Counted from the first letter of the whole stretch, positions 26,586-58,880 are shown. The stretch: DNA of 62,353 nt, filler included, from Caldilineae bacterium (GCA_037446815.1; 7 parts of 7 records of this genome joined end to end with filler, not necessarily neighbours in it); one strand, 5' to 3'. The notes: generated from the letters alone by a model not told the origin. Numbers and translations: made by a program.

Positions 26586-26662
26586 GATTTCGCCTCCGCT
26601 TCCGAAGTGCCGCCACGAATTATAGCACGGACTCACCGCCATCCCAAATGCGCGCGAGACCC

Positions 26663-26812
26663 GACTCGGTTCCAAAGTCTGTTGGTATTTGTCATTGCGA
26701 GGGCGCGGAGCGCCCGAAGCAATCTCCAGGGCGCGGGATTGCTTCGCTTCGCTCGCAATGACACACGATGAGAGGCTGCATGCGGCTCACCAACACAAGT
26801 TGGAACCGAGTC
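26663..26812 (+). mobile_element. 150-bp MITE, copy 1
   Basis: 13-bp TIR GACTCGGTTCCAA/TTGGAACCGAGTC; flanking 8-bp DR CGAGACCC/TGAGACCC; internal GTCATTGCGAG..CTCGCAATGAC hairpin. Confidence 0.85.
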
Positions 26813-26919
26813 TGAGACCCGATTCGGTTGCAGACTGTGTTGGTGCAGTTCACGCGAATTCGCGTCGCGCGCAATGCCGCATGACACGAAGCAACCTCGG
26901 AGGAGTGCAACCGCCAATA

Positions 26920-27019
26920 NNNNNNNNNNNNNNNNNNNNNNNNNNNNNNNNNNNNNNNNNNNNTTAATTAATTAANNNNNNNNNNNNNNNNNNNNNNNNN
27001 NNNNNNNNNNNNNNNNNNN
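26920..27019. other. artificial contig linker
   Basis: N44-TTAATTAATTAA-N44. Confidence 0.98.
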
Positions 27020-27036
27020 AAGGAGTCCCCGGACAC

Positions 27037-27252
27037 TGTCATTCTGAGCCGCGGAGCAGTGAGGAATCTCGCCCTCACCCCCGCCCTCTCCCGGCGGGCG
27101 AGGGAGCGCCGCCCTCACCCCCGCCCTCTCCCGGCGGGCGAGGGAGCGAAGAATCTCCGCACCTCCGAGGCGGGTCGCACGTGCCTCGTTCGCGCGGATT
27201 CGTGTTGTTCGCGGTTACTGCCCGACGCGATTACTTCAGATGAAACCGATTC
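27037..27252. repeat. REP-like mosaic with a tandem 40-bp duplication
   Basis: two copies of GCCCTCACCCCCGCCCTCTCCCGGCGGGCGAGGGAGCG; GTCATTCTGAGC unit; short MITE-end-like AGATGAAACCGATTC. Confidence 0.8.
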
Positions 27253-27273
27253 CGGGCAGCCGCCCCGTTCGCG

Positions 27274-27302
27274 TTGACGGTTTGCGTCGGCGGTGTTACA
27301 AT
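27274..27302 (+). promoter_or_regulatory. sigma70-type promoter
   Basis: TTGACG-17 bp-TACAAT with an extended -10 TG. Confidence 0.7.
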
Positions 27303-27359
27303 GGGCAGGCTTCATACGGTTGACGAACCTTGCCACAGAATGCGAAGGGAGCGGTCGCG

Positions 27360-29033
27360 ATGGATATTCCCAACCTGCGATGGTGGGGGTGGGGGACGCT
27401 GGAGCAAACCTACTCCCTGGACAATCGGCCCCGACTGTGGCCCACGCTGCGCCAATGGCTCGCGCTTCCCGACGAAATCATTCACGTTCCGCCTGTGCTC
27501 CTGGATGACATTGACCTGCGCCCGCCTCGTCTGACCGACGCGGACCTGCCTGCGCTGCGCAAGATTGCGGGCGAGGATGCCGTGCTGGTGGATCGTCGTT
27601 CGCGCGTGGAGCACGCCTTCGGCAAGTCCTACCGCGACTTGGTGCGGGCGCGGGCGGGTGTGGTCTCCAATCCCCCCGACGCCGTGGTGTATCCCGCGGA
27701 TGAGGGGCAGGTGGCGGCGGTGCTGGCGTGGGCGGCCGACCGCGACGTGGCCGTGGTGCCTTTCGGCGGCGGGAGCAGCGTGCTGGGGGGCGTGGAGCCG
27801 GAACCCGGCCCGCGTTCGGTGATCTCGCTGGACATGGCGCGGATGGATCGGCTCGTGGCGCTGGATCAAGTCTCCCGGACGGCGCGTATCCAGGCGGGAG
27901 CGACCGGCCCGGAGGTGGAGGCGCAATTGAACGCCCAGGGGTTCACCTTGGGCCACTTTCCGCAGTCCTTTGAGTTCTCCACGCTGGGCGGCTGGGTTGC
28001 AACCCGCGCGGCGGGCCAGGCGTCCACGGGGTACGGCAAGATTGAGGACATGACGCAGGCCGTGAGGGTGGTCAGCCCCGCCGGCGTTTTGGATACACGG
28101 GACGCGCCTGCGACGGCCACAGGCCCGAGCCTGCTGCAACTCCTCGTCGGCTCCGAAGGGGTCTTCGGTGTCATCACCGAGGCCACGGTGCGAATTCATC
28201 CGATGCCCCAGGTGCAGGACTACCGCGGGTTCCTGTTCCGCTCGCTAGAGGACGGCCTGGCGGCCCTGCGCGATCTGCTGCAGAACGGCCCGAAGCCCAC
28301 CGTGGCCCGCCTGTCCGACGCCAGCGAGACGGCCGGCTTCGCCATGGTGGCGCATGTGCACAGGGGGCTGAAGCGCCTGGCCGACGTGGCCGCCGAGGCT
28401 TACCTCAGGGCACGCGGCCATAGCCTCACGGGAGGCTCGTGCGTCCTTATCCTCGGCTACGATGGGGATGCGCGGACCGTGCACCGCAAGTGGGGACTGG
28501 CCGCGCCCATCTGTGGAGCCCACGGCGGCCTGGCTGTCGGGCGGTCGGCCGGGGAGTCGTGGAAGCGGGAACGGTTCGCGCAGCCGTACCTGCGGGATAT
28601 TCTCCTGGGTGCGGGGGTCTTGGTGGACACCTTGGAGACGGCCACCTCGTGGGCGAATCTGCTGCGGCTGTACGAGGCCATGACCGAGGCGCTGCGCACG
28701 GCCATCCGCGACACGGACGGGGGGCCTGGGTACGTGATGACGCACGTTTCCCACGTGTACGAGTGGGGCGCGTCGCTGTATTCCACGTTTCTGGGCCGAC
28801 AGGTGCGCGGCCAAGAGGAGCAGCAGTGGTGGGCCATCAAGCGCGCGACGACGGAGGCCATCCTGAATGCGGGCGGCACGTTGAGCCACCACCACGGCAT
28901 TGGGCGCGACCATGCCTCGTGGCATGAGCGGGAAGTCGGGCGGCTGGGCGTGGAAGCGTTCAGGGCGGTCAAGCGCACTCTAGACCCGGCGGGAATCCTC
29001 AATCCGGGCATTCTGCTGTCCACCGGGGGGTAA
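27360..29033 (+). CDS. FAD-binding oxidoreductase, alkyl-DHAP synthase (AgpS/ADPS)-like
   Basis: WWGWG, HAFGKSYRD, PFGGGSSV, GHFPQSFEFSTLGGWVATR, HVSHVY, LSHHHGIG. Confidence 0.88.
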   Translation: MDIPNLRWWGWGTLEQTYSLDNRPRLWPTLRQWLALPDEIIHVPPVLLDDIDLRPPRLTDADLPALRKIAGEDAVLVDRRSRVEHAFGKSYRDLVRARAGVVSNPPDAVVYPADEGQVAAVLAWAADRDVAVVPFGGGSSVLGGVEPEPGPRSVISLDMARMDRLVALDQVSRTARIQAGATGPEVEAQLNAQGFTLGHFPQSFEFSTLGGWVATRAAGQASTGYGKIEDMTQAVRVVSPAGVLDTRDAPATATGPSLLQLLVGSEGVFGVITEATVRIHPMPQVQDYRGFLFRSLEDGLAALRDLLQNGPKPTVARLSDASETAGFAMVAHVHRGLKRLADVAAEAYLRARGHSLTGGSCVLILGYDGDARTVHRKWGLAAPICGAHGGLAVGRSAGESWKRERFAQPYLRDILLGAGVLVDTLETATSWANLLRLYEAMTEALRTAIRDTDGGPGYVMTHVSHVYEWGASLYSTFLGRQVRGQEEQQWWAIKRATTEAILNAGGTLSHHHGIGRDHASWHEREVGRLGVEAFRAVKRTLDPAGILNPGILLSTGG

Positions 29034-29037
29034 GACG

Positions 29038-30690
29038 ATGACCGAATTGCCGTTCAGCCTCACCTGCTCGCGCCCCTTCTCGGCGGCAACCCGACAGGAG
29101 AATCTGGACGCGCTGGCGTCGGAGACGTTTGATATTCTGGTCATTGGCGGCGGCATCACCGGCGTGGCGGTGGCCCGCGATGCGGCGCTGCGGGGGTACC
29201 GCACGGCCCTGGTGGAGAAGCGCGACTTCGGGTTTGGCACCAGCAGCCGCTCGTCGCGGATGATCCACGGCGGGCTTCGCTATCTGGAAAATTACGAGTT
29301 CGGGCTGGTGCTGGAGTGCTGCAACGAGCGGCGGCGGCTGCGCAAGATCGCGCCGAGGCTGGTGCGACCGCTCCCGTTCCTGTATCCGGTGTACAGCGAC
29401 CAGAAGACGGGCCCCATCAAGTTGCGCATGGGGCTGACGCTGTACGATGCGCTGGGGCTGTTCCAGAACGTGCAGCGCCACCGATGGCTGGGCGCGGATG
29501 AGGCGCGGGCGCGAGAGCCGATCCTGGCCAGGGCGGGGCTTCTTGGCGCGGCGCGGTTCTACGATGCGCGCACGGACGATGCCCGCCTGACCATGCTCAT
29601 CGCCAGGGCTGCCCATGCCGCGGGGGCCATCGTTGCCAACTACGCCGAGGTTGTCGGTCTGCGCTTGGCGGGCAACAAGGTGCAAGGCGCATGGGTGCGC
29701 GACGGCATCACGGGGCGCGAGATAGAGGTGCGGGCCCGTGCTGTCGTGAACGCGACGGGGGTGTGGGTGGATTCCATCCGGCGGCAGGACGCATCCTACA
29801 AAGGCATCACCATACGCCCTACCAAGGGCATACACCTGGTCTTCTGGCGGGAGCGGTTGCCGAGCCATCACGCCATCGCCTTTGACTCGCCGCGGGATGG
29901 GCGGCATGCGTTTCTGGTGCCGTGGGGCCAGCACACCATCGCCGGCACAACCGACACTGACTACGCGGGCGACTTGGATAACCCGGCTGCCGACCGCGAG
30001 GACGTGGCCTACATGCTGGAGGCGCTGAATCACAACTTCCCGAACGCGCACATCGGCGAGGGGGATATTGTGAGCACCTTCGCCGGCCTGCGCCCGCTGA
30101 TCTACGCCGAGGGGGGCACCTACAGCATTTCGCGCGAGCATCAGATTTACCGCAGCCCGTCGGGGCTCATCACCGTTGCGGGCGGCAAACTGACAACCCA
30201 TCGCCTCATGGCCGAGCAGATTGTGGACATGGCGGCGCAGGTTCTGGCGCGGGAGCACGGGGTAGAGGCGACATGCGGTTGCAGCACGCGACGGGCGTTG
30301 CCCGGGGCGGAAATCGTGGGCGATGTGGCGGCGTGGATGGCCGACCGCGACGCGCAGGCGCACCTGGTGGAGACCTACGGGTCCGATGCGGCGCTGATCG
30401 CCGCGTATGCGGAGGAGAACCCCGAGTTGGGCGAGCGCATCGTGCCCGAGTTGCCCTACCTGATGGCTGAGGCGCTCTACGCGGTGCAGCATGAGATGGC
30501 CATGCGCCTGACGGACGCGCTCATCCGCCGCACGCACGTGATTTACGAGGTGCAGGACGGCGGGGTGGAGCGCGCAAGGGCTGTGGCCGAGGTGTTGGCC
30601 CCGCGGTTGGGGTGGACGGCGGCGGACGTGGAGCGCGAGTTGGCCGAGTACGAGCGGCAGGTGGCGCTGACGCAAGCGTGGCGCGGCTAG
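29038..30690 (+). CDS. glpD: FAD-dependent glycerol-3-phosphate dehydrogenase/oxidase
   Basis: IGGGITG, GTSSRSSRMIHGGLRYL, DDARL, GTTD, AGLRPL, GGKLTTHR. Confidence 0.92.
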   Translation: MTELPFSLTCSRPFSAATRQENLDALASETFDILVIGGGITGVAVARDAALRGYRTALVEKRDFGFGTSSRSSRMIHGGLRYLENYEFGLVLECCNERRRLRKIAPRLVRPLPFLYPVYSDQKTGPIKLRMGLTLYDALGLFQNVQRHRWLGADEARAREPILARAGLLGAARFYDARTDDARLTMLIARAAHAAGAIVANYAEVVGLRLAGNKVQGAWVRDGITGREIEVRARAVVNATGVWVDSIRRQDASYKGITIRPTKGIHLVFWRERLPSHHAIAFDSPRDGRHAFLVPWGQHTIAGTTDTDYAGDLDNPAADREDVAYMLEALNHNFPNAHIGEGDIVSTFAGLRPLIYAEGGTYSISREHQIYRSPSGLITVAGGKLTTHRLMAEQIVDMAAQVLAREHGVEATCGCSTRRALPGAEIVGDVAAWMADRDAQAHLVETYGSDAALIAAYAEENPELGERIVPELPYLMAEALYAVQHEMAMRLTDALIRRTHVIYEVQDGGVERARAVAEVLAPRLGWTAADVERELAEYERQVALTQAWRG

Positions 30691-33600
30691 CGCGACCTTT
30701 CCTCCGCGAGCAGGCGTTGGTACAGGCTCACGGTCTCGGGCATGGGAGGCGCGCTCAGTTCGGCGCGGAGGGTAGCCTCGCACTGCTCAAACGTGCGGAT
30801 GACCATGGCGCGGTTGCCCTGCGCGCTGTAGCAGCGCATGAGGACGCGGTACGCCTCTTCCCAGCAGTTGTCTATGGCGAGGGCCCGCTGGCACCAGGCG
30901 GCGGCTTCGTCGCAGTCGCCGATATCGGCCAGGCGCCCGGCCAGGTGCGTGATGCCGTGCAGGTACGCCTGTCGCAGGCGCTCGCGCTCCCGAAGTGTCC
31001 AGTCCTCGTATAGGAAATCGCTCAAATAGTCGCCGCGGTACAGCGCGAGGGCCTCTCGCAACAGACGAATGCTCTCCTCGGGCACGGCGGTTTGCTCGGC
31101 CTTGCTCATCAGATGCTCAAACTCGTCAACATCCACCCGCAAAGCGGCCGCAGGATTCAGCCCGTAGGCGGATTCGCGCCGCAGGATGAAAAACCCCGCG
31201 GAGCGCGACGGGCGTTGCGGCTCCAGGGCGTGGTTCAGGGCATTGAGCGCCACCTTGAAGCGCGCTTCGGCGGATGATGGGTCGGAATGCGGCCACAGGT
31301 ACTCCAAGATTTGATCGCGCTGGAGGAACTTGCCCCTGTGCGCGAGCAGGAGGGCGAACAACTGCCGCGCCTTCTCGCGCTGCCACTCGCGGGGGCCGAT
31401 TTCCTCGCGCCCTCGCCAGATGCGCAAAGGTCCCAGCACCTGTATCGTGAGCGAGTAGCCCGGGTGGGACTCAAATTCGGCCACGCCCAGGTCGTCCAGG
31501 AGTCGGGACACGTAGGCCATGTGAATGCGGCGGCGTCGGGCCTCCATGAAGAGCGGGATGCACCGCTGGGGGTCAGGTGGGGCCAGCAGGCTGGGCCGAG
31601 TGAGGAGGGCTGCCCCCTCGTTGTCCTGCACCAGGCGCAGGAGGGCCTCGGCGTGGAGCGCGAAGGCCGCGGGGTCGCCGCTGTCCAGGTAGGCGAGGCT
31701 CAACCACAAGCGACAGGCGGCGCGCGCGAACGCATCGGAGCAACGGAGGAAGGCGGTCTCGGCCCGCGCCAGTTCGTCAATCGCCTGCGGAATGCGGTTG
31801 GTGTGGACGTACACGGCGCCCAGCGTCAGGCGAACCAGGGCGGCGATCCACTCGTCGCCAGCAGCCAGGGCGATGTCTATGCCTTCCTGCGCACAGGCTT
31901 CGGCGCGGCCCGCATCGCCGAAGAACCCGTAGAGCCGCGTAAGCCCCCAGAGGGGTTCCACCGTGGCGCGAGAGACCTGCAGCGACTTGGCCATGGCAAT
32001 GGCCTTCTGGTAGCAGGCCTCCGCCTCCTCGGGCCTGGGCTTGCCGATCTGGTGGGCATGCCCGAGGCGCATATACCCGACGGCTTCCACAAAAGGCGAG
32101 CCGAGCGCACGCCCGACCTGGATTCCATCCAGAGCGCACTGCATCGCCGCTTCTGGGTCTCCGCGGAAGGCGTGGATGAGCGATAGGAGGAGCAGGGTTT
32201 CGCGGTGGGCGCGGGCGGGGCGATGGGGCGGCGCGGCCCGTTCTTCGGCGGCGCGCTGCTCCAGGATGGCCTGGGCCTGGGCGATGCGCCCGGTGCGCAG
32301 GAGGACGCGCACGTCCAGGTCGGCGGCGCTGGGGCCGTCGGAGGTCAGGAGGGCGCGGGCTTGCTCGCGGAGCGCCCTTGCTTCGTCCAGTCGGCCCAGG
32401 TTGGTGCGATTCTCCGCGAGCGCCTCCAGCAGGGCCGCGCGTTCGCGTCTGTCCTTCTCGTCGTTGAGGCGCAGCGCCTCCTCCAGGAGGGCCTCGGCGC
32501 GGAGCGGGCGCACCGTGTCCAGGTACACCGTACCCTGCGCCCGAAGGGCGCGGCTCAAACCGGCGTTATCCCCCGTGGCGCGGAAGCGGCTCTCGGCGCG
32601 GCTGTACCATTCCAGCGCCTCCTCAAACTGGCTGGCCAGCCGATAGGTGTCGCCCAGCCAGACCATCAGCAGCGGGTATTCCTCCAGCACAGGGTGGGGG
32701 AGCGCGACGATCCAGTTTCGCAGGGTGTCCAGGCGGCCCGTGCGGATCATCCCCTCGGCCAGCGCGCCGATGGCCTCCGCGGCCGGTATGAAGTCGCCGG
32801 CCGCAAGGAAGTGGATGACGGCTTCCTCCGCCGCGCCCTCGCCCGTGTAGAAACGCGCCGCCTGGCGATGGAGCGCGCTCTTGGACAGGCCGTGCGCGGC
32901 GAGTTGCTCCTGCAAGAAGTCTCGGAACAGGTGTTGATACCGATACTCCTGCGGGCCGGTCTGATGGACGAAGAGGCCATCATCGCACAGGCCCCGCAGG
33001 ATGGTCTCCGAGCCGCGCCAGCCCAGCATCGCGTCGCACACGTCCGGGGTCATGGAGTGCAGGACGCTGGTTACCAGCAGGAAATGCTGGCGTTCCGGCG
33101 ACGTGCGGTTGAGGACTTCCTTGGCGAGATAGTCAAAGAGCGGGTCCAGCGCCTCGGGCAAGGCGGTCCAAACGTCCTGCAGCGAGGCTACGGAGCCTGA
33201 CTCCAGGGCCTTCCATATCATCTGCAAGGCGATAACCCAGCCTTCGGTCTCGCGCGCGAGGCGCTCTACATCGGCGGGCGCCAACTGCACCTTGTACAAG
33301 GCGCGGAACAGGGTCTCTATTTCGTCCGCGGTGAAGGCCAGGTCTTCCACGCCGATTTCCAGCAGGCGCCCCTTGACCTTCCACCGACTGAGGGGCAGGA
33401 GCGCCGGGCGTTGACGCGCGCTGAGGATGACATGGATGTTGGGGGGTAGGTAGTCAACCAAGCGGGCGACGATGTGGGCGATTTCGGGAACGTCGGCCAC
33501 CAGGTGGAAATCGTCTATGACGAGCGCGCTGTCGGTTCGCAGGTCATCGGCCAGTTCGTTGATGAGCATGTCGGTGGCGCGCCGCCAAGACGCCGGCCCA

Positions 33601-33926
33601 CCGGCAGGCCCCTGACGCAAGAACGCGAGGGTGCTGTCGGCGATCTCCGGCAGTTGAAGCCGCAGGGCGTGCACCACATGCAGGAGGAAGGCCATCGGGT
33701 CGGCATCTGTTTCGGCCGCGCTGTACCAGAACAGGGGGACCTTCCCGTCGGCCAACGCCTGGACCAACGCCGTGGATTTGCCGTATCCCGTCGCGGCCTG
33801 CACCAGGGTAACGTTGTGGTGTAGACAGCGCAGGATGCGTTCCGACAGGCGCGGCCTGTACAGGTTCGGCTGCAAGGGTTTGGGCGGAATCAGTTTCGTT
33901 TGCAGGATAAGGGTATCCGCGACCAT
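30687..33926 (-). CDS. MalT-like STAND ATPase / TPR / BTAD transcriptional regulator
   Basis: TKLIPP, ATGYGKST, IDDFH, TEGWVIAL, YRYQHLFRDFL, TPRs; C-terminal wHTH-BTAD (ALYRGDYL, EEAYRVLM). Confidence 0.92.
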   Translation of the reverse strand: MVADTLILQTKLIPPKPLQPNLYRPRLSERILRCLHHNVTLVQAATGYGKSTALVQALADGKVPLFWYSAAETDADPMAFLLHVVHALRLQLPEIADSTLAFLRQGPAGGPASWRRATDMLINELADDLRTDSALVIDDFHLVADVPEIAHIVARLVDYLPPNIHVILSARQRPALLPLSRWKVKGRLLEIGVEDLAFTADEIETLFRALYKVQLAPADVERLARETEGWVIALQMIWKALESGSVASLQDVWTALPEALDPLFDYLAKEVLNRTSPERQHFLLVTSVLHSMTPDVCDAMLGWRGSETILRGLCDDGLFVHQTGPQEYRYQHLFRDFLQEQLAAHGLSKSALHRQAARFYTGEGAAEEAVIHFLAAGDFIPAAEAIGALAEGMIRTGRLDTLRNWIVALPHPVLEEYPLLMVWLGDTYRLASQFEEALEWYSRAESRFRATGDNAGLSRALRAQGTVYLDTVRPLRAEALLEEALRLNDEKDRRERAALLEALAENRTNLGRLDEARALREQARALLTSDGPSAADLDVRVLLRTGRIAQAQAILEQRAAEERAAPPHRPARAHRETLLLLSLIHAFRGDPEAAMQCALDGIQVGRALGSPFVEAVGYMRLGHAHQIGKPRPEEAEACYQKAIAMAKSLQVSRATVEPLWGLTRLYGFFGDAGRAEACAQEGIDIALAAGDEWIAALVRLTLGAVYVHTNRIPQAIDELARAETAFLRCSDAFARAACRLWLSLAYLDSGDPAAFALHAEALLRLVQDNEGAALLTRPSLLAPPDPQRCIPLFMEARRRRIHMAYVSRLLDDLGVAEFESHPGYSLTIQVLGPLRIWRGREEIGPREWQREKARQLFALLLAHRGKFLQRDQILEYLWPHSDPSSAEARFKVALNALNHALEPQRPSRSAGFFILRRESAYGLNPAAALRVDVDEFEHLMSKAEQTAVPEESIRLLREALALYRGDYLSDFLYEDWTLRERERLRQAYLHGITHLAGRLADIGDCDEAAAWCQRALAIDNCWEEAYRVLMRCYSAQGNRAMVIRTFEQCEATLRAELSAPPMPETVSLYQRLLAEERSR

Positions 33927-33975
33927 GGCTGTATTATACCGCTTGGGGCGGCGGGCGCAAGGTGGGTAGGCGGAG

Positions 33976-34124
33976 GACTCGTTCCATCTTGTGTTGGTGA
34001 AACGCATGGACACTCTCCTCGTGTGTCGTTGCGAGCGAAGCGAAGCAACCTCACGCCCCAGAGATTGCTTCGGGCGCTCCGCGCCCTCGCAATGACAAAT
34101 ACCAACAGACTTTGGAACCGAATC
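33976..34124 (-). mobile_element. 150-bp MITE, copy 2 (149 bp)
   Basis: GACTC-GTTCCA...TGGAACCGAATC; 8-bp DR AGGCGGAG/AGGCGGGG. Confidence 0.85.
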
Positions 34125-34244
34125 AGGCGGGGGGCAGATGCGCGCGGCGCCCCCCTTTGCCGCGCTGGGGCGAGTGTGCTACACTTGGCATGACTCTCTG
34201 CCGTTCGGTGCTGCACCGAACGCATCGCAGCCTGGGAGGGAACG

Positions 34245-35633: not shown

Positions 35634-35659
35634 GAGCGCGACGCCGCGAAGGACGGCAA

Positions 35660-35844
35660 CCGCGAATCGCGCAAATGAGGCACCTGCGACGCACCTCCGA
35701 GGTGCGTCGCAGGTTGTCTCACCATCTGTTGCGCTGAGCCGAAGGCTATTCGCCCTCGCCCTTTGGGAGAGGGCTGGGGTGAGGGGCGTGAGATTCTTCG
35801 CCGCTGCGCGGCTCAGAATGACGGGGGTCCCGGCGCCCTCGCCC
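35660..35844. repeat. REP-like mosaic
   Basis: CCTGCGACGCACCTCCGAGGTGCGTCGCAGG; reverse CCCTCACCCC unit; GAGATTCTTCG..CTCAGAATGAC. Confidence 0.8.
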
Positions 35845-35944
35845 NNNNNNNNNNNNNNNNNNNNNNNNNNNNNNNNNNNNNNNNNNNNTTAATTAATTAA
35901 NNNNNNNNNNNNNNNNNNNNNNNNNNNNNNNNNNNNNNNNNNNN
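35845..35944. other. artificial contig linker
   Basis: N44-TTAATTAATTAA-N44. Confidence 0.98.
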
Positions 35945-35977
35945 GCCAACTTGCCCTACACCCTTAGCGCGGCGGCT

Positions 35978-38323: not shown

Positions 38324-38325
38324 GG

Positions 38326-38988: not shown

Positions 38989-39015
38989 AGGCAAAGGGCC
39001 GGCGCAGGTGTGCCG

Positions 39016-39384
39016 CTACTCGGCGGCAGGCGTCTCAACCCGACGTTCGCGCAACCGCGCGGACTTGCCTCCGCGGCCGCGAAGGAAGTACAGTTTGGCG
39101 CGGTGCACCTTGCCGTGTCGCAGGACTTCCACCTTCTCCACGCGAGGCGAGTGGAAGGGGAACGTGCGCTCCACGCCCACGCCATGGGCCCCGATGCGGC
39201 GCACGGTGAAACTGGCCGCCGGCCCGCCCTTCTTGATGCGAATCACGACGCCCTGCACCAACTGAATACGCTCGCGGTCTCCCTCTACGATGCGGCTGTG
39301 AACGCGCACCGTGTCGCCGGGAGCCAGCGGGGGTATATTCGGATTCGGCTCAAGCCGCTCTACGGATTTCAAGAGTTCGCTCAT
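39016..39384 (-). CDS. rplS: 50S ribosomal protein L19
   Basis: PGDTVRVH..EGDRERIQ, FTVRR, GVERTFP, VHRAKLYFLR. Confidence 0.98.
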   Translation of the reverse strand: MSELLKSVERLEPNPNIPPLAPGDTVRVHSRIVEGDRERIQLVQGVVIRIKKGGPAASFTVRRIGAHGVGVERTFPFHSPRVEKVEVLRHGKVHRAKLYFLRGRGGKSARLRERRVETPAAE

Positions 39385-39418
39385 GCTGTGCAACCTCCGA
39401 TCATAATAGCAAAGACAC

Positions 39419-39447
39419 ATTATAGTCTCTTACGCCGAAATCCGCAA
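39419..39447 (-). promoter_or_regulatory. rplS promoter
   Basis: minus strand TTGCGG-17 bp-TATAAT. Confidence 0.7.
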
Positions 39448-39462
39448 ATCGCGCCTGCGCGT

Positions 39463-39612
39463 GATTCGGTTTCATCTTGTGTTGGTGAATTGCAGGCGCA
39501 CCCTCCTCGTGTGTCATTGCGAGCGAAGCGAAGCAATCCCACGCCCCGGAGATTGCTTCGGGCACTGCGTGCCCTCGCAATGACGGCTAACAACAGACTC
39601 TGGAACCGAATC
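39463..39612 (-). mobile_element. 150-bp MITE, copy 3
   Basis: GATTCGGTTTCA...TGGAACCGAATC; 8-bp DR CTGCGCGT/CTGTGCGT. Confidence 0.87.
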
Positions 39613-39639
39613 CTGTGCGTGATTCGGTTGGCGCCTGCT

Positions 39640-44940: not shown

Positions 44941-45005
44941 ACACCGCTTCTCCGTTCGCGTGAGCCCGATTCGCCCCAAGCGCGCCGGTCGTGTATAATC
45001 AAAGC

Positions 45006-47856: not shown

Positions 47857-47859
47857 CCC

Positions 47860-48243
47860 CTAACCCAGCCCCAGCGCCTCCACCACCGCCCGCGCCACAT
47901 CCCCCACGCGAAACGGCCGCACCAACGTCCGGAACGCGAGGGCGCCCACCTCGCCATACTCCGCCGCCCCGTAGGCACCCATGAGCAGGATCAACCGCCG
48001 TCCGTCCAGTGCGCGCGCAACCTGCCGCGCCTGCTCCGCGGAGAGGCCCGAGCCCGGCCCCACATCCAGCACCACAACCCGCGCCTCCACGCCGCCGGTG
48101 AGCAATGCCCGTAGCGCCGTCGCCTCATCCGATTCCGCGCAGACAGCAAGGCCCCGCTCCTCCAACTCCGCGACGATGAGCGAGCGGGGCCCCCTATCCG
48201 CCATCACAATGGCCACATCATACGCCTGCGCACCCTGATCCAT
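47860..48243 (-). CDS. atypical stand-alone receiver-like domain protein
   Basis: beta/alpha pattern VAIVMAD, VVVLD, LILLMG, LVRPF. Confidence 0.6.
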   Translation of the reverse strand: MDQGAQAYDVAIVMADRGPRSLIVAELEERGLAVCAESDEATALRALLTGGVEARVVVLDVGPGSGLSAEQARQVARALDGRRLILLMGAYGAAEYGEVGALAFRTLVRPFRVGDVARAVVEALGLG

Positions 48244-48289
48244 CTCCGCTCGCGTCCCCACGCAGGTGCCCGGGGCGTGTGCTGTCCTG

Positions 48290-50746: not shown

Positions 50747-50762
50747 ATCCTTCCCCTCTCGC

Positions 50763-53378
<2,616 letters not shown>

Positions 53379-53555
53379 CGTTGCACCTCCATAATTCCGA
53401 ACGATTGCATACGGGCGCACGCGCATGCATGCGCCTCTGCTGGTACTATAGGCACACAACATAAGAAAACGGTTAGAACAGCGTAAGCGAAGGGTAAGAG
53501 ACGCCCGTGGACACAACAGGCTGTCATTCTGAGGCGCGAAGCGCCGAAGAATCTC

Positions 53556-53655
53556 NNNNNNNNNNNNNNNNNNNNNNNNNNNNNNNNNNNNNNNNNNNNT
53601 TAATTAATTAANNNNNNNNNNNNNNNNNNNNNNNNNNNNNNNNNNNNNNNNNNNN
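53556..53655. other. artificial contig linker
   Basis: N44-TTAATTAATTAA-N44. Confidence 0.98.
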
Positions 53656-53672
53656 ATCCCTCACGGCTCCGC

Positions 53673-53708
53673 AGCACCCACGTCGGCCGGCGTGGGTGCT
53701 TTACTTTT
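53673..53708 (+). terminator. rho-independent terminator-like hairpin
   Basis: AGCACCCACG-8 nt-CGTGGGTGCT followed by TTACTTTT. Confidence 0.65.
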
Positions 53709-53710
53709 CG

Positions 53711-53860
53711 GAGTCGGTTTCATCTTGTGTTGGTGAACCGTAGGCGCACTCTCCTCGTGTGTCATTGCGAGCGAAGCGAAGCAATCCCACGCCCCGGAGA
53801 TTGCTTCGGGCACTGCGTGCCCTCGCAATGACAGCCACCAACAAACTTTGGAACCGACTC
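53711..53860 (-). mobile_element. 150-bp MITE, copy 4
   Basis: GAGTCGGTTTCA...TGGAACCGACTC; perfect 8-bp DR ACTTTTCG at 53703-53710 and 53861-53868. Confidence 0.9.
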
Positions 53861-53878
53861 ACTTTTCGCGCGGCCCGC

Positions 53879-54847
53879 TCAGCGCGCCAGCATCTGCGCG
53901 ATGTCGTAGTTGCTGAGGTCCAGGCTCGGCGTGCTCTGCACCACCTGCTCCAGCGGCACCAGTTCTATGCGGTTGCCCCGCAGGGCCGTCATGGTGCCGT
54001 ATTCCCCCGCGAGGATGGCCTGCACCGCCCGCATGCCCATGCGGGTGGCCAGCAAACGGTCAAAGGCGGTGGGCGAACCGCCGCGCTGCACGTGCCCCAG
54101 GACGGTAACCCGCACCTCAAACCCCGGCGACACCTTGCACAGATAGTCGGCGATTTCCTGCGCGCCGAACTTTGCCCCTTCGGCCACAACGATGATGGCG
54201 TGGGTCTTGCCCCGGACGTAGGCCTCGTCCACCGCGCTGGCGATCGCCTCCAGGGGAATCTCTTTCTCGGGGATGACGGTAACCTCGGCCCCTGCGATGA
54301 TGCCGCCGATGAGCGCCAGGTAGCCATGATGGCGGCCCATCACCTGCACCAGGAAGCACCGCTGGTGCGACGACGCCGTGTCCTTGATCATGTCAATGAT
54401 GTGCACCATGGTATTCAGCGCGGTGTCCACGCCGATGGACATGTCGGTGAACGGCACATCGTTGTCAATGCTTCCGGGGACGCCCACCACCGGCACGCCC
54501 ATCTTGTGCAGTTCGTAGGCCCCGGCCAGCGAGCCATTGCCGCCGATGATGACAAGGGCGTCTATGCGGCGGTCGTTGAGGCGGCGGACGGCCTGCTTGC
54601 GGCCCTCCACGGTCATGAACTCGGCGCTGCGGGCGGTCTGGAGGAATGTGCCGCCGCGCTGGATGATGCCGCCAACGTCACGGGCGGTTAGCGGCTCCAT
54701 GTCGCCGTCTATGAGGCCCGAATAGCCCCGGCGAATGCCATAGACCTCCAGGCCGGCGCTAAGGGTTGTGCGCACGACGGCCCGCACGCACGCGTTCATG
54801 CCGGGGGCATCCCCGCCGCTCGTCAAGACGCCAATGCGCTTCATCAT
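53879..54847 (-). CDS. pfkA: ATP-dependent 6-phosphofructokinase
   Basis: LTSGGDAPGMNA, GGTFLQTAR, PGSIDND, VMGR, LGHVQRGG. Confidence 0.98.
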   Translation of the reverse strand: MMKRIGVLTSGGDAPGMNACVRAVVRTTLSAGLEVYGIRRGYSGLIDGDMEPLTARDVGGIIQRGGTFLQTARSAEFMTVEGRKQAVRRLNDRRIDALVIIGGNGSLAGAYELHKMGVPVVGVPGSIDNDVPFTDMSIGVDTALNTMVHIIDMIKDTASSHQRCFLVQVMGRHHGYLALIGGIIAGAEVTVIPEKEIPLEAIASAVDEAYVRGKTHAIIVVAEGAKFGAQEIADYLCKVSPGFEVRVTVLGHVQRGGSPTAFDRLLATRMGMRAVQAILAGEYGTMTALRGNRIELVPLEQVVQSTPSLDLSNYDIAQMLAR

Positions 54848-54928
54848 CCTATTCCTCGCTTTCGCGGGCGACTCTCTCGCTTTGCCGCGCCGCCTATCCA
54901 AACTCCGAATTTGTTGCGATGCGCCGCG

Positions 54929-57900
54929 CTACTCCACGCGCAGCCCGTCGGGTGGCACCAAGCCACGCAGTTCCTCCAACAGCGCATCGCAGCACGACGT
55001 TGTCGTGTTGGGGAAATCCAACTCCCACCCGCCACCGCCTCGCCACACATGCACGCAGAACCGGTCCTGCCCGGGATACTTCAGGAACAGGCGGTAGATT
55101 TCGTTGAGGCGCTGCTTCTCGGTCTCCGTATCGCCGCCCAGCCGCAGGGTAACCAGGATGCGGCGCGCAGGCTCGGCGCGCGGCGGTTCCGGCGGAGGGG
55201 CGGGTGGCTCGTAGGCTTCGGGGGGCGGCTCGTCCCACGGGTCGTCCGCGGCGTCGGCGCCAAAGCCGTTGGCCTCCGCGTACCCGGTCGCGTTGCCGTT
55301 CGCCACCCGCGGGATGGTCAGTTCCTCGGTGGCCCAGTCGCAGATGAGTNNNNNNNNNNNNNNNNNNNNNNNNNNNNNNNNNNNNNNNNNNNNNNNNNNN
55401 NNNNNNNNNNNNNNNNNNNNNNNNNNNNNNNNNNNNNNNNNNNNNNNNNGCCGTTCGCCACCCGCGGGATGGTCAGTTCCTCGGTGGCCCAGTCGCAGAT
55501 GAGTTTCGGCTTCTGGTCTCGCATGTCCACCTTGCCGCGCACCAGCAGGATACGGTCCGTGGTCCACAGGTCCTTCGTGGTGCGGTACACCTTGGGGAAC
55601 ACCACCAACTCTATGCTGCCGTGCAGGTCATCCATCTGGACGAAGGCCATCTCCTCGCCCTTGCGCGTGCTGATGGTGCGCATGAGGGCGACCGTCCCCA
55701 GAATTGTAACATGCTGGCCAGCCAGGTCTTCAGTGATGGCGGTTGTGGGCGTAACCTCCAGGCCCTCTATCTGGTTCATCACGGTTTGCAGGGGGTGCTC
55801 GGTAAAGAACGTGCCCGTGAGTTCGCGCTCCCAGGCGATGCGCTCCTTCTGGGTTGCGGGGCGGGGCTTCTTCACGGTGTCCAGGATGGACACGCCCGCC
55901 ATGGATGTGCTGCCCATCAGGTCAAACATGGACAACTGGCCCACCTCGCGCGCGGCCCATTCCTTCTGGCTCACGGCCATCATGGTCTCAATGGCCTCAA
56001 GCAGGTGTTTCCGTTCGCCGAAGCAGTCCAGCGCGCCGGCCTTGATGAGACACTCCAGGCCCTTGCGGTTCACCTGGCGCAAATCCACACGCTTGACGAA
56101 ATCGCCCAGGTCCGCGAAGGGGCCGCCTTCCTCCCGCGCCGACACGATGGCGTTGATCGGCCCGTCGCCGATGCCCTTGATGGCGCCCAGCCCGAATCGG
56201 ATTTTCCCGCCCTCAATCACGAAGTCGCAGACGCTGTGATTCACGTCGGGCGGCAGGAGTTCAATCCCCAGCCTGCGGGTCTCGGCGGCGATGAGGGAAA
56301 TCTTCTCGGTATTGCCCCGCTCCACGCAGAGGAGGGCCGTCATGTACTCCAGCGGGTACTTGGCCTTTAGGTAGGCCGTTTGGCATGTGATATAGGCATA
56401 GTCGGCGGCATGGGCCTGGTTGAACCCGTAACTGGCGAACTTCTCTATCTGGTCAAAGATTTGGTTGGCGACGTCCTCGCCGATGCCCCCGTGCTCCTTG
56501 GCGCCGCGCACGAATTTCTCGCGCTCGGCCAGAAGCACCTCTTTCTTCTTCTTGCCCACGGCGCGCCGCACGTTGTCGGCTTCGGAGGCCGTGTACCCCG
56601 CGATGTCGGTCAGGATGCGGATAATCTGCTCCTGGTACACGATGACGCCGTAGGTCTTTCTGAGAATCGGCTCCAGTTTGGGGTGGACGTACTCAATGGC
56701 GACGCGCCCATGCCGGCGCTCGGTGAAATCCCCGATGAACTCCATCGGCCCCGGACGATACAGCGCCACGACCGCCATCACGTCCTCGTAGCGCTGGGGC
56801 TGGAGGCCGCGCAGCACCTTGCGCATGCCTTCGCTTTCCACCTGGAACAGGCCCGTTACGTGCCCGCTGGACAGGAGTTTGTAGATGTCGGGGTCGTCCA
56901 GGGGGATGTTGCGCAGGTTCAGGTCCACGCCGTGGTTCTGGCGGATGAGATCGCACGCCCGCCGCATGACGGTGAGGGTCGCCAGTCCGAGGAAGTCCAC
57001 CTTGAGCAAGCCGATCTTCTCCAGGGCTTCCATCTCGTACTGGGTTACCACGCCGCCCTCGCCCTTGGTGGGGCGGTGCAGGGCCACGTACTCCACCAGC
57101 GGCTTGTCGGCGATGACGACGCCCGCGGCGTGGGTGGAGGCGTGGGCGGCCACGCCCTCCAGAGTGCGCGCGGTATCTATCAGCGTCTTGAAATAGGGCG
57201 CGTTCTCGTCCTCGTACAGCGCCTTGAGTTCGGGTATCGCCTCCAGACTGCCATCAATGGTTACCTTGGGGCCGGCGGGAATCAGTTTCGCCACCCGATC
57301 CACTTCGGTCAGGGGCAAGTCCAGCACGCGCCCCGCGCCGCGGATGGACGCCTTGGCGCCCAGCGTGCCGAAGGTGATGATCTGCGCCACCTGGTCGGCC
57401 CCGTACTTGTCAATGGCGTACTGAATCATCTCATCCCGACGGTCGTCGGGGAAGTCCAGGTCCACATCGGGCATGGTAACGCGCCCGGGGTTCAGGAAGC
57501 GCTCAAAGATGAGTTCCTGCGCCAGGGGGTCTACATACGTCAGGCCCAGACCGTAGGCGACAATGCTCCCGGCGGCGGACCCCCGGACGTTCCACCAGAT
57601 GTCCCGACTGCGCGCGTACCGCACCAGGTCCCACACGATGAGGAAGTAGGTGTCAAACCCCATGTCGTGGATGACGCGCAGTTCGTACTCCATCCGCTCG
57701 CGCACGTGCTGGGGCATCCCCGGGTAGCGTTCGGCCAGCCCCTCTGCCACCAGTTTCGCCAGATAGGTCTGCGGCGTGAAGCCATCGGGCACCTGGAAGG
57801 GGGGCAGGTGGTAGTTCCCGAACTCAAGGGTAACGTCGCAGGCTTCGGCGATGCGCAGGGTGTTGTCCAGCGCCTCGGGCCACTCGGGGAACAGGGCGGC

Positions 57901-58656
57901 CATCTCATCGCCGTCCTTCAGATAGAAACTGTTGTCCCCCATGTTCATGTGGTCGGGGTCTGCCATGACCGTGTTGGTCTGGAGGCACAGGAGGACTTCC
58001 TGCGCGTAGGCGTCGCGGGCGTGGACGTAGTGCACGTCGTTGGTGGCGACCAGCGGAATCTGCAAGTCGCGGGCGATGTCCACCAGAGCGCGGTTGATGT
58101 CGGCGAATTCGGGGAGGCCCTCGTGATACTGCAATTCCAGGTAGAAGCCATCGGGGCCGAATACGTTGCGATACCAGGCGGCGGCTTCCCTGGCGCTGTC
58201 CAACAGGCCATCTTGAATAAGCCGCGGGATTTCGCCGGAGCCGCACGCGCTGAGCGCGATAAGCCCCTCGGCGTGGGCCGCGAGGTACTCCTTGTCAACG
58301 CGGGGCTTGTAGTAGAACCCTTCCAGTTGGGCGGCGGTGGCGATTTTCAGCAGGTTCTGGTAGCCCTGATTATTGCGGGCCAGGAGCACCAGATGGTAGG
58401 CCCCCTGGTCTTCGCGCCCCGCGCGGGAATGCATGGAGTTGGGCGCGAGGTAAATCTCGCAGCCGAGGATGGGCTTCACGCCGGCGGCGTGGCATTTTTC
58501 GTAGAACTCAATGACGCCGAACAGTGTGCCGTGGTCGGTGAGCGCCACGGCGGGCATGCCCAGTTCCGCCGCGCGCTTGGCGAGCGCATCCACTTTGGCA
58601 AGCCCGTCAAGGAGGGAGTATTCGCTGTGCACGTGAAGATGAACGAAGGGACGCAT
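54929..58656 (-). CDS. dnaE: DNA polymerase III alpha subunit (interrupted only by a scaffold gap)
   Basis: HLHVHSEYSLLDG, RGSAAGS, MPDVDLDF, YGFNQAHA; the C-terminus continues past the N-gap at 55350-55449. Confidence 0.97.
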
Positions 58657-58686
58657 CGCCTGACCGCCTTACAAACCCTTTGGCCC

Positions 58687-58715
58687 ATTATACAACGGCG
58701 TGTCAAGGCGGGCAA
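58687..58715 (-). promoter_or_regulatory. dnaE promoter
   Basis: minus strand TTGCCC-17 bp-TATAAT. Confidence 0.7.
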
Positions 58716-58730
58716 TCCGCGCAATCTGCG

Positions 58731-58880
58731 GATTCGGTTCCAAAGTCTGTTGGTATTTGTCATTGCGAGGGCGCGGAGCGCCCGAAGCAATCCCTGGGGC
58801 GTGGGGTTGCTTCGCTTCGCTCGCAACGACACACGAGGAGAGTGCGCCTACGGTTCACCAACACAAGATGAAACCGAATC
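58731..58880 (+). mobile_element. 150-bp MITE, copy 5
   Basis: GATTCGGTTCCA...TGAAACCGAATC; 8-bp DR AATCTGCG/AATCCGCG. Confidence 0.87.

Follow-up and report, generated by a model that had tools for sequence, protein, structure and literature searches.

According to Guerillot et al. (PMC3942029), prokaryotic Mutator-like elements generate 8-9-bp target duplications, TnGBS and related insertion sequences (ISs) leave 15-17 bp between themselves and the -35 box downstream, and TnGBS/ISLre2 elements together with thirteen ISs of the ISKra4 group keep a fixed distance from the sigma-A promoter that they precede. The promoter-targeting ISs occur in both orientations where their inverted repeats are near-symmetric. 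The same source connects promoter targeting with a motif that the transposases have between domains N1 and N2, and describes promoter enrichment as absent among IS256 elements. The first-pass annotation of the DNA considered here had cited TnGBS/ISLre2 insertion upstream of promoters and 8-9-bp duplications as established, which is correct by this source.

The window (the whole stretch of DNA analysed, 62,353 nucleotides with filler, from the Caldilineae bacterium genome GCA_037446815.1) consists of seven pieces, with spacers of the form N44-TTAATTAATTAA-N44 between them. It contains a 150-bp repeat that is probably a MITE of a ~1.5-kb Chloroflexota IS family, and one that probably measures its site from a sigma-70-type promoter.

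Copies, ends and target duplications of the 150-bp element

Five copies of 149-150 bp each, with pairwise identities of 84.7-93.3%, are carried by four contig pieces:

26663..26812, minus strand: MITE copy 1, 150 bp, AAAG-type end toward the promoter; target duplication CGAGACCC/TGAGACCC (26655-26662 / 26813-26820, 7/8)
33976..34124, plus strand: MITE copy 2, 149 bp, left TIR one base short; target duplication AGGCGGAG/AGGCGGGG (33968-33975 / 34125-34132, 7/8)
39463..39612, plus strand: MITE copy 3, 150 bp; target duplication CTGCGCGT/CTGTGCGT (39455-39462 / 39613-39620, 7/8)
53711..53860, plus strand: MITE copy 4, 150 bp, no promoter at the site; target duplication ACTTTTCG/ACTTTTCG (53703-53710 / 53861-53868, perfect)
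58731..58880, minus strand: MITE copy 5, 150 bp; target duplication AATCTGCG/AATCCGCG (58723-58730 / 58881-58888, 7/8)

The TIR, GA(C/T/G)TCGGTT(C/T)CA, shows 11-12 matches over its 12 positions in every copy but copy 2, which has 7/12, and an imperfect extension brings it to ~25 nt (18-21/25 in four copies). No plausible ORF is present in the element, which folds into a single long hairpin, and the 8-bp target duplications have no consensus. Short, non-coding, bounded by TIRs and 8-bp duplications and present in several diverged copies, the element is a true MITE. The insertions are old, to judge by the 7-15% divergence of the copies and by the mismatch in four of the duplications. Copies 1 and 5 have their AAAG-type end on the promoter side, and copies 2 and 3 have the ATCT-type end there. 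Copy 4 is located between a 12-pair terminator hairpin (53673-53700), the T-tail of which forms the duplicated target, and the 3' end of pfk (53882-54901, minus strand), a position contrary to promoter targeting.

The first-pass annotation had listed five copies at these coordinates on four contigs, with 12-13-bp TIRs, one perfect and four single-mismatch 8-bp duplications, unrelated target sequences, both orientations and one copy behind a terminator, and all of these features were recovered. Its REP-like hairpin was retained as a hairpin (GTCATTGCGAG...CTCGCAATGAC in the core; -37.8 kcal/mol, z -4.8), while a REP/RAYT link was not found. Many other short palindromic repeat families occur in the window.

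Promoters adjoining the copies

Copies 1, 2, 3 and 5 have a predicted minus-strand promoter at their left, with the -35 box at flank positions 16-21, leaving 15 bp between box and element, and a perfect TATAAT beginning at flank position 38-39:

26619..26647, minus strand: predicted TPR gene promoter, -35 TTGGGA (26642-26647), 17-bp spacer, -10 TATAAT (26619-26624); gene start on the minus strand with GGAGG 26593-26597 and ATG 26585
33933..33960, minus strand: predicted BTAD/TPR regulator promoter, -35 TTGCGC (33955-33960), 16-bp spacer, -10 TATAAT (33933-33938)
39419..39447, minus strand: predicted rplS promoter, -35 TTGCGG (39442-39447), 17-bp spacer, -10 TATAAT (39419-39424); gene start on the minus strand with GGAGG 39394-39398 and ATG 39384
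58687..58715, minus strand: predicted dnaE promoter, -35 TTGCCC (58710-58715), 17-bp spacer, -10 TATAAT (58687-58692); ATG 58656

The TPR and rplS genes have a Shine-Dalgarno motif and an ATG 30-34 nt past the -10 box, the ATG of dnaE follows at 30 nt with no clear Shine-Dalgarno motif, and the in-frame ATG of the BTAD/TPR regulator (33926), 6 nt past the -10, represents a leaderless layout. The predicted promoters suit genuine genes in this respect, as does a sixth site, which leads into a T-box. Only ten perfect TATAAT hexamers occur on both strands of the window, four of them in these promoters, and the chance of such placement at random is therefore as low as 2.5e-4 per element and ~2e-14 for at least four of five elements. 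Between element and -35 box the copies show no sequence likeness, the promoter hexamers being the only feature common to the targets, and the four -35 boxes have just TTG in common. The boxes are sequence predictions, weak for the -35 of copies 2 and 3, and a stricter promoter scan accepts copies 1 and 5 only, because the -35 boxes of the other two match TTGACA at three of six positions. The earlier claim of a TTGnnn hexamer 15 bp from the element and 16-17 bp from a perfect TATAAT in four copies holds at the chance level given above, and the gene names proposed with it (TPR, BTAD, rplS and dnaE) are upheld by Pfam.

Another element end was found immediately after the distal duplication in two of the four promoter-linked copies:

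26821..26919, plus strand: second, related MITE beginning GATTCGGTTGCAGACTGTGTTGGTG, abutting the distal duplication of copy 1 and running into the contig end
39621..39631, plus strand: 11-nt TIR remnant GATTCGGTTGG, abutting the distal duplication of copy 3

Ends that abut duplicated targets suggest that one site has been struck repeatedly; the ends at 26821 and 39621 are what one would expect if the same promoter-measured target had received a second insertion. A third copy of the target, predicted behind the remnant at 39621, was looked for and not found.

Autonomous insertion sequences with the same ends

The first-pass proposal to search for a Mutator-family transposase inside the same TIRs proved fruitful. 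A genome scan yielded, in Chloroflexota MAGs, ISs of 1452-1526 bp that are bounded by both MITE end types:

L034, 1832-3357: autonomous IS, 1526 bp
L009, 2998-4519: autonomous IS, 1522 bp, with the perfect duplication CGCACTTG
L002: autonomous IS, 1520 bp
L018: autonomous IS, 1452 bp

The transposases of these four ISs are homologous (57-100% identity), the IS inverted repeats match at 21-24 of 25 positions, and the 1.5-kb family is common in Chloroflexota. For the Caldilineae genome itself an autonomous copy or an empty site was sought and not found. None of the 44 window proteins is encoded by a transposase gene (Pfam), so that mobilisation in trans in this genome is a step that we infer.

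The IS product is a 427-aa transposase (P0001) with a zinc ribbon and a DDE domain, which matches the Pfam Mutator family (PF00872, Transposase_mut) at 30.4 bits against a cut-off of 21. Residues C28, C31, C62, C65, D170, D233 and E353 are invariant in 17/17 sequences, and R360 is located seven residues past E353. The AlphaFold model has a pLDDT of 85.1, and the top five matches of a PDB fold search are all to the ISCth4 transposase (E 2.7e-9; TM 0.51-0.52; 421-435 columns). The transposase scores under the cut-off of every named NCBIfam family. The IS256 model (NF033543) gives 34.7 bits with P0001, below the cut-off of 150 bits, which sets the protein outside the IS256 family proper, and at most 63 bits in ten distant full-length relatives. 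The ISLre2 HMM has no match to P0001 at E <= 1, by which a TnGBS/ISLre2 partner is ruled out, and one of the ten distant relatives reaches 22.4 bits with NF033529 (ISLre2) against a cut-off of 200. An ISKra4 partner is set apart by its ends and duplication length. By HMM and modelled fold, the putative autonomous partner is thus nearest to IS256/ISH6. The first-pass comparison with Mutator-like (IS256-related) DDE elements is supported by the PF00872 match and the ISCth4 fold, but the TnGBS/ISLre2 group that it named is not the one to which the partner belongs.

Promoter proximity across the wider family

Fifty-seven flanks were scored for outward promoters with a weight matrix of E. coli frequencies. 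Measured against 20,000 random sites, 26 scored at or above the 95th percentile and 17 at or above the 99th, as against four and one, respectively, when the same flanks were scored inward. Over 200 nt, 54 flanks contained 25 strong outward sites, 19 of which begin in the first 20 nt, and among the 12 complete elements whose duplication agrees at 7/8 or better, nine had a promoter-like flank. The 1.5-kb Mutator-type IS of Chloroflexota also adjoins predicted promoters. A test for outward ORF starts downstream of these predictions was without discriminating power (17/27 vs 18/31). Flanks do not match in the complete elements L001, L034 and L018, where chimeric joins are possible since the sequences are MAG assemblies.

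The spacing in the family is bimodal, with the -35 start at 3-7 or 15-19 nt. Among 27 promoter-like flanks it lies at 3-7 nt in twelve, 9-11 nt in three, 15-19 nt in ten and 21-22 nt in two, and a single IS end is seen at offset 5 as well as at offset 16 within one MAG (L018, L051). Where the -35 starts at 3-7 nt, it is a strong TTGACA whose TTG falls partly within the target duplication, for example CGCACTTG in L009 and GTCTTTGA in L015. The link between element and promoter that had been claimed is far beyond chance in the window and seen again in the wider family. However, the spacing of 'exactly 15 bp', and the expected flank pattern of TTG at 16 and TATAAT at 38-39, apply to four of the five window copies, whereas the relatives show two spacing modes and, family-wide, several offsets.

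Comparison with known systems

The element resembles TnGBS/ISLre2 (p-MULT 3) in its distance from the -35 box (15-17 bp there, 15 bp here), in Mutator-like DDE chemistry with 8-9-bp duplications, and in the use of a 'safe' site at which the core promoter is left undamaged (PMC3942029). TnGBS/ISLre2 elements differ, by the same source, in being nearly confined to Firmicutes, in being autonomous ISs or ICEs of up to 52 kb, and in inserting in a single orientation with the right inverted repeat by the promoter, while two copies face each way here; furthermore, the present family falls only partly within their 15-17-bp range. The ISKra4 group (p-MULT 4) of Guerillot et al. (2014; PMC3942029) includes, among others, ISKra2/4/5/6 of Ktedonobacter racemifer as well as ISCasp2/3. 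Its members, partly from Chloroflexi, are likewise Mutator-like DDE elements that occur promoter-adjacent in both orientations, with near-symmetric inverted repeats and terminal bases 5' G and 3' C. However, their ends read GGGTG... (ISKra2/5/6 and ISCasp rows of Table S1) against GA(C/T)TCGGTT here, they duplicate 9 bp where the present family duplicates 8 bp, and the TIR strings of the 150-bp element's family are absent from Table S1 (PMC3942029). The transposase described here matches IS256/ISH6 models and none for ISKra4, the separation from which stands on ends and duplication, and the window element differs from the ISKra4-group ISs in being non-autonomous.

With the IS256 family, the transposase shares its best whole-protein fold match (ISCth4, PDB 6xgx/6xg8), Transposase_mut (Pfam) and DDE spacing, and IS256 duplications are also of 8-9 bp. 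Unlike ISCth4, to which identity is 13%, and unlike the IS256 family, it has an additional N-terminal four-cysteine zinc ribbon. The 150-bp element adds a further variant to the known promoter-targeting Mutator-like elements, by analogy with which RNA polymerase may guide it.

Classical bacterial MITEs such as Correia, RUP and ERIC are short, non-coding, intergenic and hairpin-forming, with inverted ends and a target duplication; their targets are short sequences, for instance TA, and promoters or terminators are often part of the element. We know of none described with a site measured from the host promoter, and a literature search for such a MITE found none.

Proposed mechanism and alternatives

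The 427-aa transposase, supplied in trans, would bind to the inverted ends of ~25 bp, move the element by excising it or copying it out, and integrate it through 8-bp staggered cuts. The target would be measured from a sigma-70-type promoter; in this genome the cuts would lie 7 and 15 bp ahead of the -35 box, at about -50 to -43 relative to the start of transcription. Cuts upstream of the -35 would leave the core promoter and the neighbouring gene intact, and either end may face the promoter because the two ends are nearly symmetric. The MITE is presumed to move in trans, and a copy-out/paste-in pathway may be envisaged by analogy with IS256/ISCth4. Recognition may well proceed through contact with the promoter-bound RNA polymerase holoenzyme, as proposed for TnGBS, although we advance this step tentatively.

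The transposase could instead read promoter DNA itself, either the TTG/TATAAT hexamers or upstream bendability or melting, without contacting RNA polymerase. Such direct reading accords with the hexamers being the sole feature common to the targets, with the overlap of duplications and TTGACA in the 3-7-nt class (L009, L015), and with copy 4 in an A/T-rich terminator tail, which hints at a DNA-property component. It is nevertheless rather unlikely, as the window -35 boxes have only TTG in common, the 8-bp targets are without consensus, and two modes ~10 bp apart more easily fit a protein landmark on one helix face. Random insertion with survival only where harmless, just upstream of promoters, would agree with the general restriction of MITEs to intergenic DNA, and partly also with the outward/inward asymmetry, given that a promoter by an intergenic element should point away from it. 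Harmlessness does not foresee single-base precision (4/4 at 15 bp), the start of 19/25 strong sites within 20 nt of 200 nt, or second insertions in the very same 8-bp target, and this retention bias is very doubtful.

The long, stable core hairpin and the wealth of other palindromic families are what a REP/BIME-type palindrome, spread by a RAYT (Y1) transposase or recombination and not mobilised by a DDE enzyme, would bring with it. REPs, however, have neither the 8-bp target duplications seen here nor 25-nt inverted ends, the ends are common to DDE-transposase ISs, and a RAYT-like gene is absent among the 44 window proteins, making this origin extremely improbable. That the promoter is an outward-facing part of a longer mobile unit would explain the constant repeat-to-TATAAT distance in four copies, but is almost out of the question: the 8-bp duplications bracket the 150-bp core with the promoter outside, the 44 nt from core to -10 are unrelated save for the hexamers, promoters occur beside either element end, conserved housekeeping genes are served at normal distances, and copy 4 has no promoter.

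Within the preferred reading of promoter-measured insertion, it is conceivable, though less than probable, that the family forms a third promoter-measuring clade, unnamed, IS256-like and abundant in uncultured Chloroflexota, with many MITE offspring of 101-150 bp and two registers about one helical turn apart. The same transposase would have two preferred registers, in which the -35 starts some 5-6 nt or some 16 nt away from the end of the element, a pattern that points to its docking on promoter-bound RNA polymerase from one DNA face. If true, promoter-measured insertion would extend beyond TnGBS/ISLre2 and ISKra4, and the copies would represent built-in promoter markers for genomes beyond culture.

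One further element end, not included in the first-pass annotation, occurs in the window:

9234..9258, plus strand: degraded solitary element end GACCAACACAAGATGAAACTGATTC

This end is followed after 18 bp by a TTGACA (9277-9282)-17-TAGAAT (9300-9305) promoter, predicted to drive a T-box leader (9327-9572) and ileS (9763-12906).

Structure of the MITE in the window

Five MITE copies of 149-150 bp, with a mutual identity of 84.7-93.3 %, occur in the window at exactly the positions reported in the first-pass annotation:

26663-26812: copy 1
33976-34124: copy 2
39463-39612: copy 3
53711-53860: copy 4
58731-58880: copy 5

As had been described, each copy starts with GA(C/T/G)TCGGTT(C/T)CA and closes with its reverse complement, and is surrounded by an 8-bp direct repeat, which is perfect in copy 4 and matches at 7/8 positions in the other four. 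The inverted repeat extends imperfectly to 25 nt (18-21/25 matching positions in four copies), and the interiors of the two ends differ (...CATCTTGTGTTGGTG versus ...CAAAGTCTGTTGGTA). Folded as a single strand, the element gives one extended hairpin (-37.8 kcal/mol, z -4.8), and 0/200 shuffled sequences were equally stable. No Rfam family was found for the 150-bp element, the sole match in the window being a T-box. The third base of the terminal inverted repeat varies among the copies (C, T, G) but is identical at both ends within a copy in 4/5 cases; the ends in other genomes almost always read GAC. The agreement within copies could be due to chance (about 0.05) or reflect subfamily structure.

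The window comprises 62,353 bases in seven contig pieces of ~8.9 kb, with a G+C content of 65.8 %, the pieces being joined via artificial N44-TTAATTAATTAA-N44 spacers. The reading frame of dnaE is broken by an N100 scaffold gap (55350-55449); every other N run is an artificial join between contig pieces.

Promoters adjoining the window copies

Outward from copies 1, 2, 3 and 5, fifteen unrelated bases are followed by a -35 hexamer, 16-17 further bases and a perfect TATAAT, the arrangement that had been proposed from the sequence alone.

Promoters and genes adjoining four MITE copies in the window
Copy 1: TTGGGA, 17-base spacer, TATAAT; TPR gene, ATG at 26585, 33 nt after the -10, GGAGG 7 nt before the ATG
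Copy 2: TTGCGC, 16-base spacer, TATAAT; 33926-33938, minus strand, BTAD/TPR regulator (1079 aa), in-frame ATG at 33926, six bases after the perfect TATAAT
Copy 3: TTGCGG, 17-base spacer, TATAAT; rplS, ATG at 39384, 34 nt after the -10, GGAGG 9 nt before the ATG
Copy 5: TTGCCC, 17-base spacer, TATAAT; dnaE, ATG at 58656, 30 nt after the -10

These four promoters make biological sense, and the position of the regulator ATG suggests a leaderless mRNA. Only ten perfect TATAAT hexamers are found in the whole window, both strands counted. Under random placement, the chance of such an arrangement is 2.5e-4 per element and ~2e-14 for at least four of the five copies; where placement is limited to a 200-bp intergenic region, four exact hits are estimated, rather than computed, to occur less than once in 10^5. 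A consensus promoter scan (≥4/6 matches in each hexamer) detected only 2/4 promoters, those of copies 1 and 5, because in copies 2 and 3 just the TTG of the -35 box agrees with the consensus. The promoter case for the window thus rests on the perfect -10 boxes and the gene context. Both orientations occur, as previously noted, with the AAAG-type end facing the promoter in copies 1 and 5 and the ATCT-type end in copies 2 and 3. Copy 4 departs from the promoter pattern and is linked to a terminator, as had also been recognised: the target duplicated there (ACTTTTCG) forms the T-tail of a terminator with a 12-pair hairpin, opposite the 3' end of pfk.

Three further element ends, all absent from the first-pass annotation, and a leader element were found:

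9234-9258: degraded solitary MITE-family end, 18 bp upstream of TTGACA-17-TAGAAT (9277-9305)
9327-9572, plus strand: T-box leader (Rfam RF00230, 98.4 bits), upstream of ileS (9763-12906)
from 26821: second related element (GATTCGGTTGCAGACTGTGTTGGTG...), directly behind the distal duplication of copy 1 and cut by the contig end
39621: 11-nt end remnant (GATTCGGTTGG), directly behind the distal duplication of copy 3

With the T-box and ileS behind it, the solitary end constitutes a fifth site at an independently supported promoter. The elements behind copies 1 and 3 point to re-use of one target, since a second insertion at the same promoter-measured position would be expected to leave, 7 nt from the promoter, a target copy, then the new element, then the target again and the older element beyond it. 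Random insertion followed by selection would hardly give this layout. The predicted third target copy was not found within 680 nt behind the remnant at 39621, and at copy 1 the contig stops before the region where it could show.

Related elements in other genomes

A degenerate end pattern scanned across genome contigs matched at least 52 stretches (at least 51 loci). Among the matches listed, most true hits fall in Chloroflexota MAGs (Caldilineales, Anaerolineales, Anaerolineae and Chloroflexia labels), and the remainder, which look like chance matches, were set aside. Among the listed matches are related MITEs, 101-141 bp long and flanked by perfect 8-bp duplications (L015, L024, L025, L029, L032 and L041). 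A Mutator-family transposase bounded by the same terminal inverted repeats, for which a search had been suggested, is encoded in other Chloroflexota genomes (at least four loci) but not in the window, where a Pfam scan of the 44 ORFs found housekeeping genes and no transposase. The elements of this ~1.5-kb IS type have inverted repeats matching at 21-24/25 positions.

IS elements in other Chloroflexota genomes
L034, 1832-3357: full-length IS with both MITE end types, 1526 bp
L009, 2998-4519: full-length IS with both MITE end types, 1522 bp, perfect duplication CGCACTTG
L002: full-length IS with both MITE end types, 1520 bp
L018: full-length IS with both MITE end types, 1452 bp
L006: deleted form, 1349 bp

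Comparison of the window with all the listed loci by blastn yielded three HSPs, all inside the clpB-type gene of the window, and therefore neither a close relative nor an empty target site, as sought in the first-pass annotation, was found among them. The ISs and some MITEs carry, at one end, a second GTGTTGGTG copy ~15 nt inside the terminal one (L034, about 3300-3357; L018, about 1420-1472; L011, L028 and L048). This inner copy, which is absent from the window MITE, may serve as a second binding site for the transposase and so render the two ends unequal. In two complete elements (L034 1832-3357 and L001 344-459) the 8-bp flanks mismatch, and both flanks carry an outward promoter-like site at equal offset (18/18 and 6/6, respectively). 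Such flanks would stem either from recombination between two promoter-linked copies or from a chimeric MAG assembly joined across the repeat.

The transposase

The 427-aa transposase of L034 (P0001) matches Pfam Transposase_mut (30.4 bits; cut-off 21). Its NCBIfam matches are weak, comprising IS256 (34.7 bits; cut-off 150), ISH6 (33 bits; cut-off 240) and N-terminal zinc-binding domains, with no ISLre2 or ISKra4 match at E ≤1. Ten distant full-length relatives scored at most 63 bits against IS256 and 49.7 bits against ISH6, and a single one matched ISLre2 (22.4 bits; cut-off 200); the ISLre2 model is therefore present in the HMM library yet does not fit. At least 1,644 homologues (E ≤0.001) were found among 8,000 scored candidates in a word-index search, many on ~1.5-kb contigs, and an exhaustive profile search gave 562 family representatives at 50 % clustering. 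In a protein atlas, P0001 falls among unnamed Transposase_mut clusters, which are mostly of Chloroflexota, and no homologue was found in 72,556 plasmids (tblastn).

Residues C28, C31, C62 and C65 (zinc ribbon), D170, D233 and E353 are invariant in 17 aligned members, with R360 seven residues past E353. A structure model from a shallow alignment (pLDDT 47.5) was discarded without being searched, and a diverse alignment gave a model with pLDDT 85.1 and pTM 0.81. The five best PDB fold matches of the latter are all to the ISCth4 transposase of the IS256 family (E 2.7e-9 to 2.7e-5; TM 0.43-0.52; 12-14 % identity). ISCth4 was found only through this fold search, as profile searching of the PDB at the sequence level returned nothing at E ≤0.01.

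Promoter association and spacing across the family

Sixty-two distinct element ends were gathered from the listed loci and the window, and their outward flanks were scored with a -35/-10 weight matrix built on E. coli base frequencies. Ends without the starting G were left out, both in non-Chloroflexota loci (L003, L004, L008, L014, L026, L030, L037, L043, L047 and L050) and in Chloroflexota-type records (L010, L031, L039 and L042), as were presumed chance matches (L019 and L046), flanks below 60 nt (L002 minus and L018 plus) and duplicates (L021 of L012; L035 of L034). Copy 2 was missed by the end pattern and added by hand for the duplication, outward-ORF and 200-nt position counts.

Measured against 20,000 random sites in the same sequences, 26 of the 57 usable flanks reached the 95th percentile and 17 the 99th, where ~3 and ~0.6, respectively, would be expected; read inward, the same flanks gave four and one. 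Position provides the sharper test, because promoters beside intergenic elements would mostly point outward anyway. Strong outward sites crowd at the element ends: in 54 flanks of 200 nt, the counts per 10-nt bin were 10, 9, 0, 1, 1, 0, 0, 0, 0 and 0 for bins 1-10, and 2, 0, 0, 0, 0, 0, 0, 2, 0 and 0 for bins 11-20. A promoter-like flank occurs in 9/12 complete elements with a duplication of ≥7/8, and also on all five autonomous copies (L002, L006, L009, L018 and L034). The presence of an outward ORF start did not set the predicted promoters apart in high-GC DNA (17/27 versus 18/31).

The fixed 15-bp spacing that had been claimed holds for four of the five window copies, but spacing is not uniform in the wider family. 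Counted from the element end, the -35 of the 27 promoter-like flanks (copy 2 included) starts at 3-7 (n = 12), 9-11 (n = 3), 15-19 (n = 10) or 21-22 (n = 2). In the class at 3-7, the target duplication and the -35 TTG overlap (L009, CGCACTTG; L015, GTCTTTGA). Elements from one MAG tend to have the same offset: the window has four at 16, and the MAG of L006, L013 and L033 has three at 6. Strictly lineage-fixed spacing was nevertheless rejected, as the same IS end occurs at offsets 5 (L018) and 16 (L051) in one MAG.

Classification and proposed insertion mechanism

To our knowledge, transposon targeting of bacterial promoters is rare and has been recognised in two Mutator-like lineages. The observation made on the window is real, and the first-pass annotation was right in substance. 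The element belongs neither to TnGBS/ISLre2, the group cited there as precedent, nor to ISKra4; it is best filed as a non-autonomous form of an unnamed IS256-like Chloroflexota clade, among the known promoter-targeting Mutator-like elements. A REP/RAYT reading of the repeat was rejected, being at odds with the 8-bp duplications and the ends common to DDE-transposase ISs. A mobile-promoter reading was rejected, as the 8-bp duplications enclose the 150-bp core and leave the promoter outside.

Guerillot et al. (2014; PMC3942029) place the insertions of TnGBS and its related ISs 15-17 bp upstream of the -35 in sigma-A promoters, the distance from the right inverted repeat peaking at 16 bp. The same holds for thirteen ISs of the ISKra4 group, four of them from the chloroflexus Ktedonobacter, which can insert either way round owing to inverted repeats that are 83-100 % complementary. 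In prokaryotic Mutator-like elements the inverted repeats measure 18-39 bp and bear a terminal C, and the duplications are 8 or 9 bp long; promoter enrichment is absent for IS256 elements, and the ISH6 target is AANATNTT (PMC3942029). The Chloroflexota family resembles the elements of Guerillot et al. in superfamily, terminal G...C, duplication length and promoter habit. Unlike TnGBS/ISLre2, its transposase is not ISLre2 by HMM, and it differs from ISKra4 in both ends (GGGTG... in ISKra4) and duplication (9 bp in ISKra4), its end strings being absent from Table S1 (PMC3942029). The window element is a MITE, a word with no occurrences in that paper. Neither a promoter-targeting MITE nor the present IS is described in the mainly open-access full texts searched, passages of PMC9208149 among them.

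The present case contributes a non-autonomous, high-copy form of a promoter-targeting element and a natural data set holding two spacing registers. It also contributes a clade of transposases that is confidently modelled and has a relative of solved structure, ISCth4, through which promoter finding by the transposase is open to experiment. The copies mark likely promoters, including leaderless ones, in Chloroflexota MAGs without transcript data, and account for contig breaks in intergenic regions of such bins.

IS256/ISCth4-type enzymes bind the inverted repeats, transpose by copy-out/paste-in via a circular junction and make staggered 8-bp target cuts. By analogy, an enzyme of this type would bind the inverted repeats of the present elements, copy them out and paste them in through a circular junction, and insert them at staggered 8-bp cuts, and the MITE would be mobilised in trans. 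With Ty3 as a parallel, Guerillot et al. (2014) proposed that the RNA polymerase initiation complex is contacted (PMC3942029). The evidence here leans towards a protein landmark, the promoter-bound holoenzyme, because there are two registers ~10 bp apart, no 8-bp target consensus and weak -35 boxes. Direct read-out of the promoter DNA may alternatively provide the landmark, and the insertion of copy 4 into a terminator tail hints at a component based on a DNA property.

Other repeats and genes in the window

Short palindromic repeats crowd the intergenic regions and contig ends of the window. They include at least four families other than the MITE (e.g. GTCATTCTGAGCGGCGAAGCCGCGAAGAATCTC, CCCTCACCCCAGCCCTCTCCCGGCGGGCGAGGG and ACGTGCGACGCACCTCGGAGGTGCGTCGCACG), and their distance to promoters looked irregular.

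Other palindromic repeats, stacked in shared intergenic regions and at contig ends
4474-4712
8781-8913
9083-9188
27035-27185
35661-35717
39637-39927
44598-44945
58905-59022

A TTGCAC-17-TAGAAT promoter-like site (8930-8958, plus strand) points off a contig end, and 16 nt upstream of its -35 lies the end of a CCCTCACCC...GGGCGAG hairpin repeat, a spacing that other copies of this repeat do not show. A radical SAM/SPASM protein with a PqqD-like domain (2150-3586, plus strand) is encoded beside a methyltransferase (3712-4458), a neighbourhood with the look of a peptide-maturation locus.
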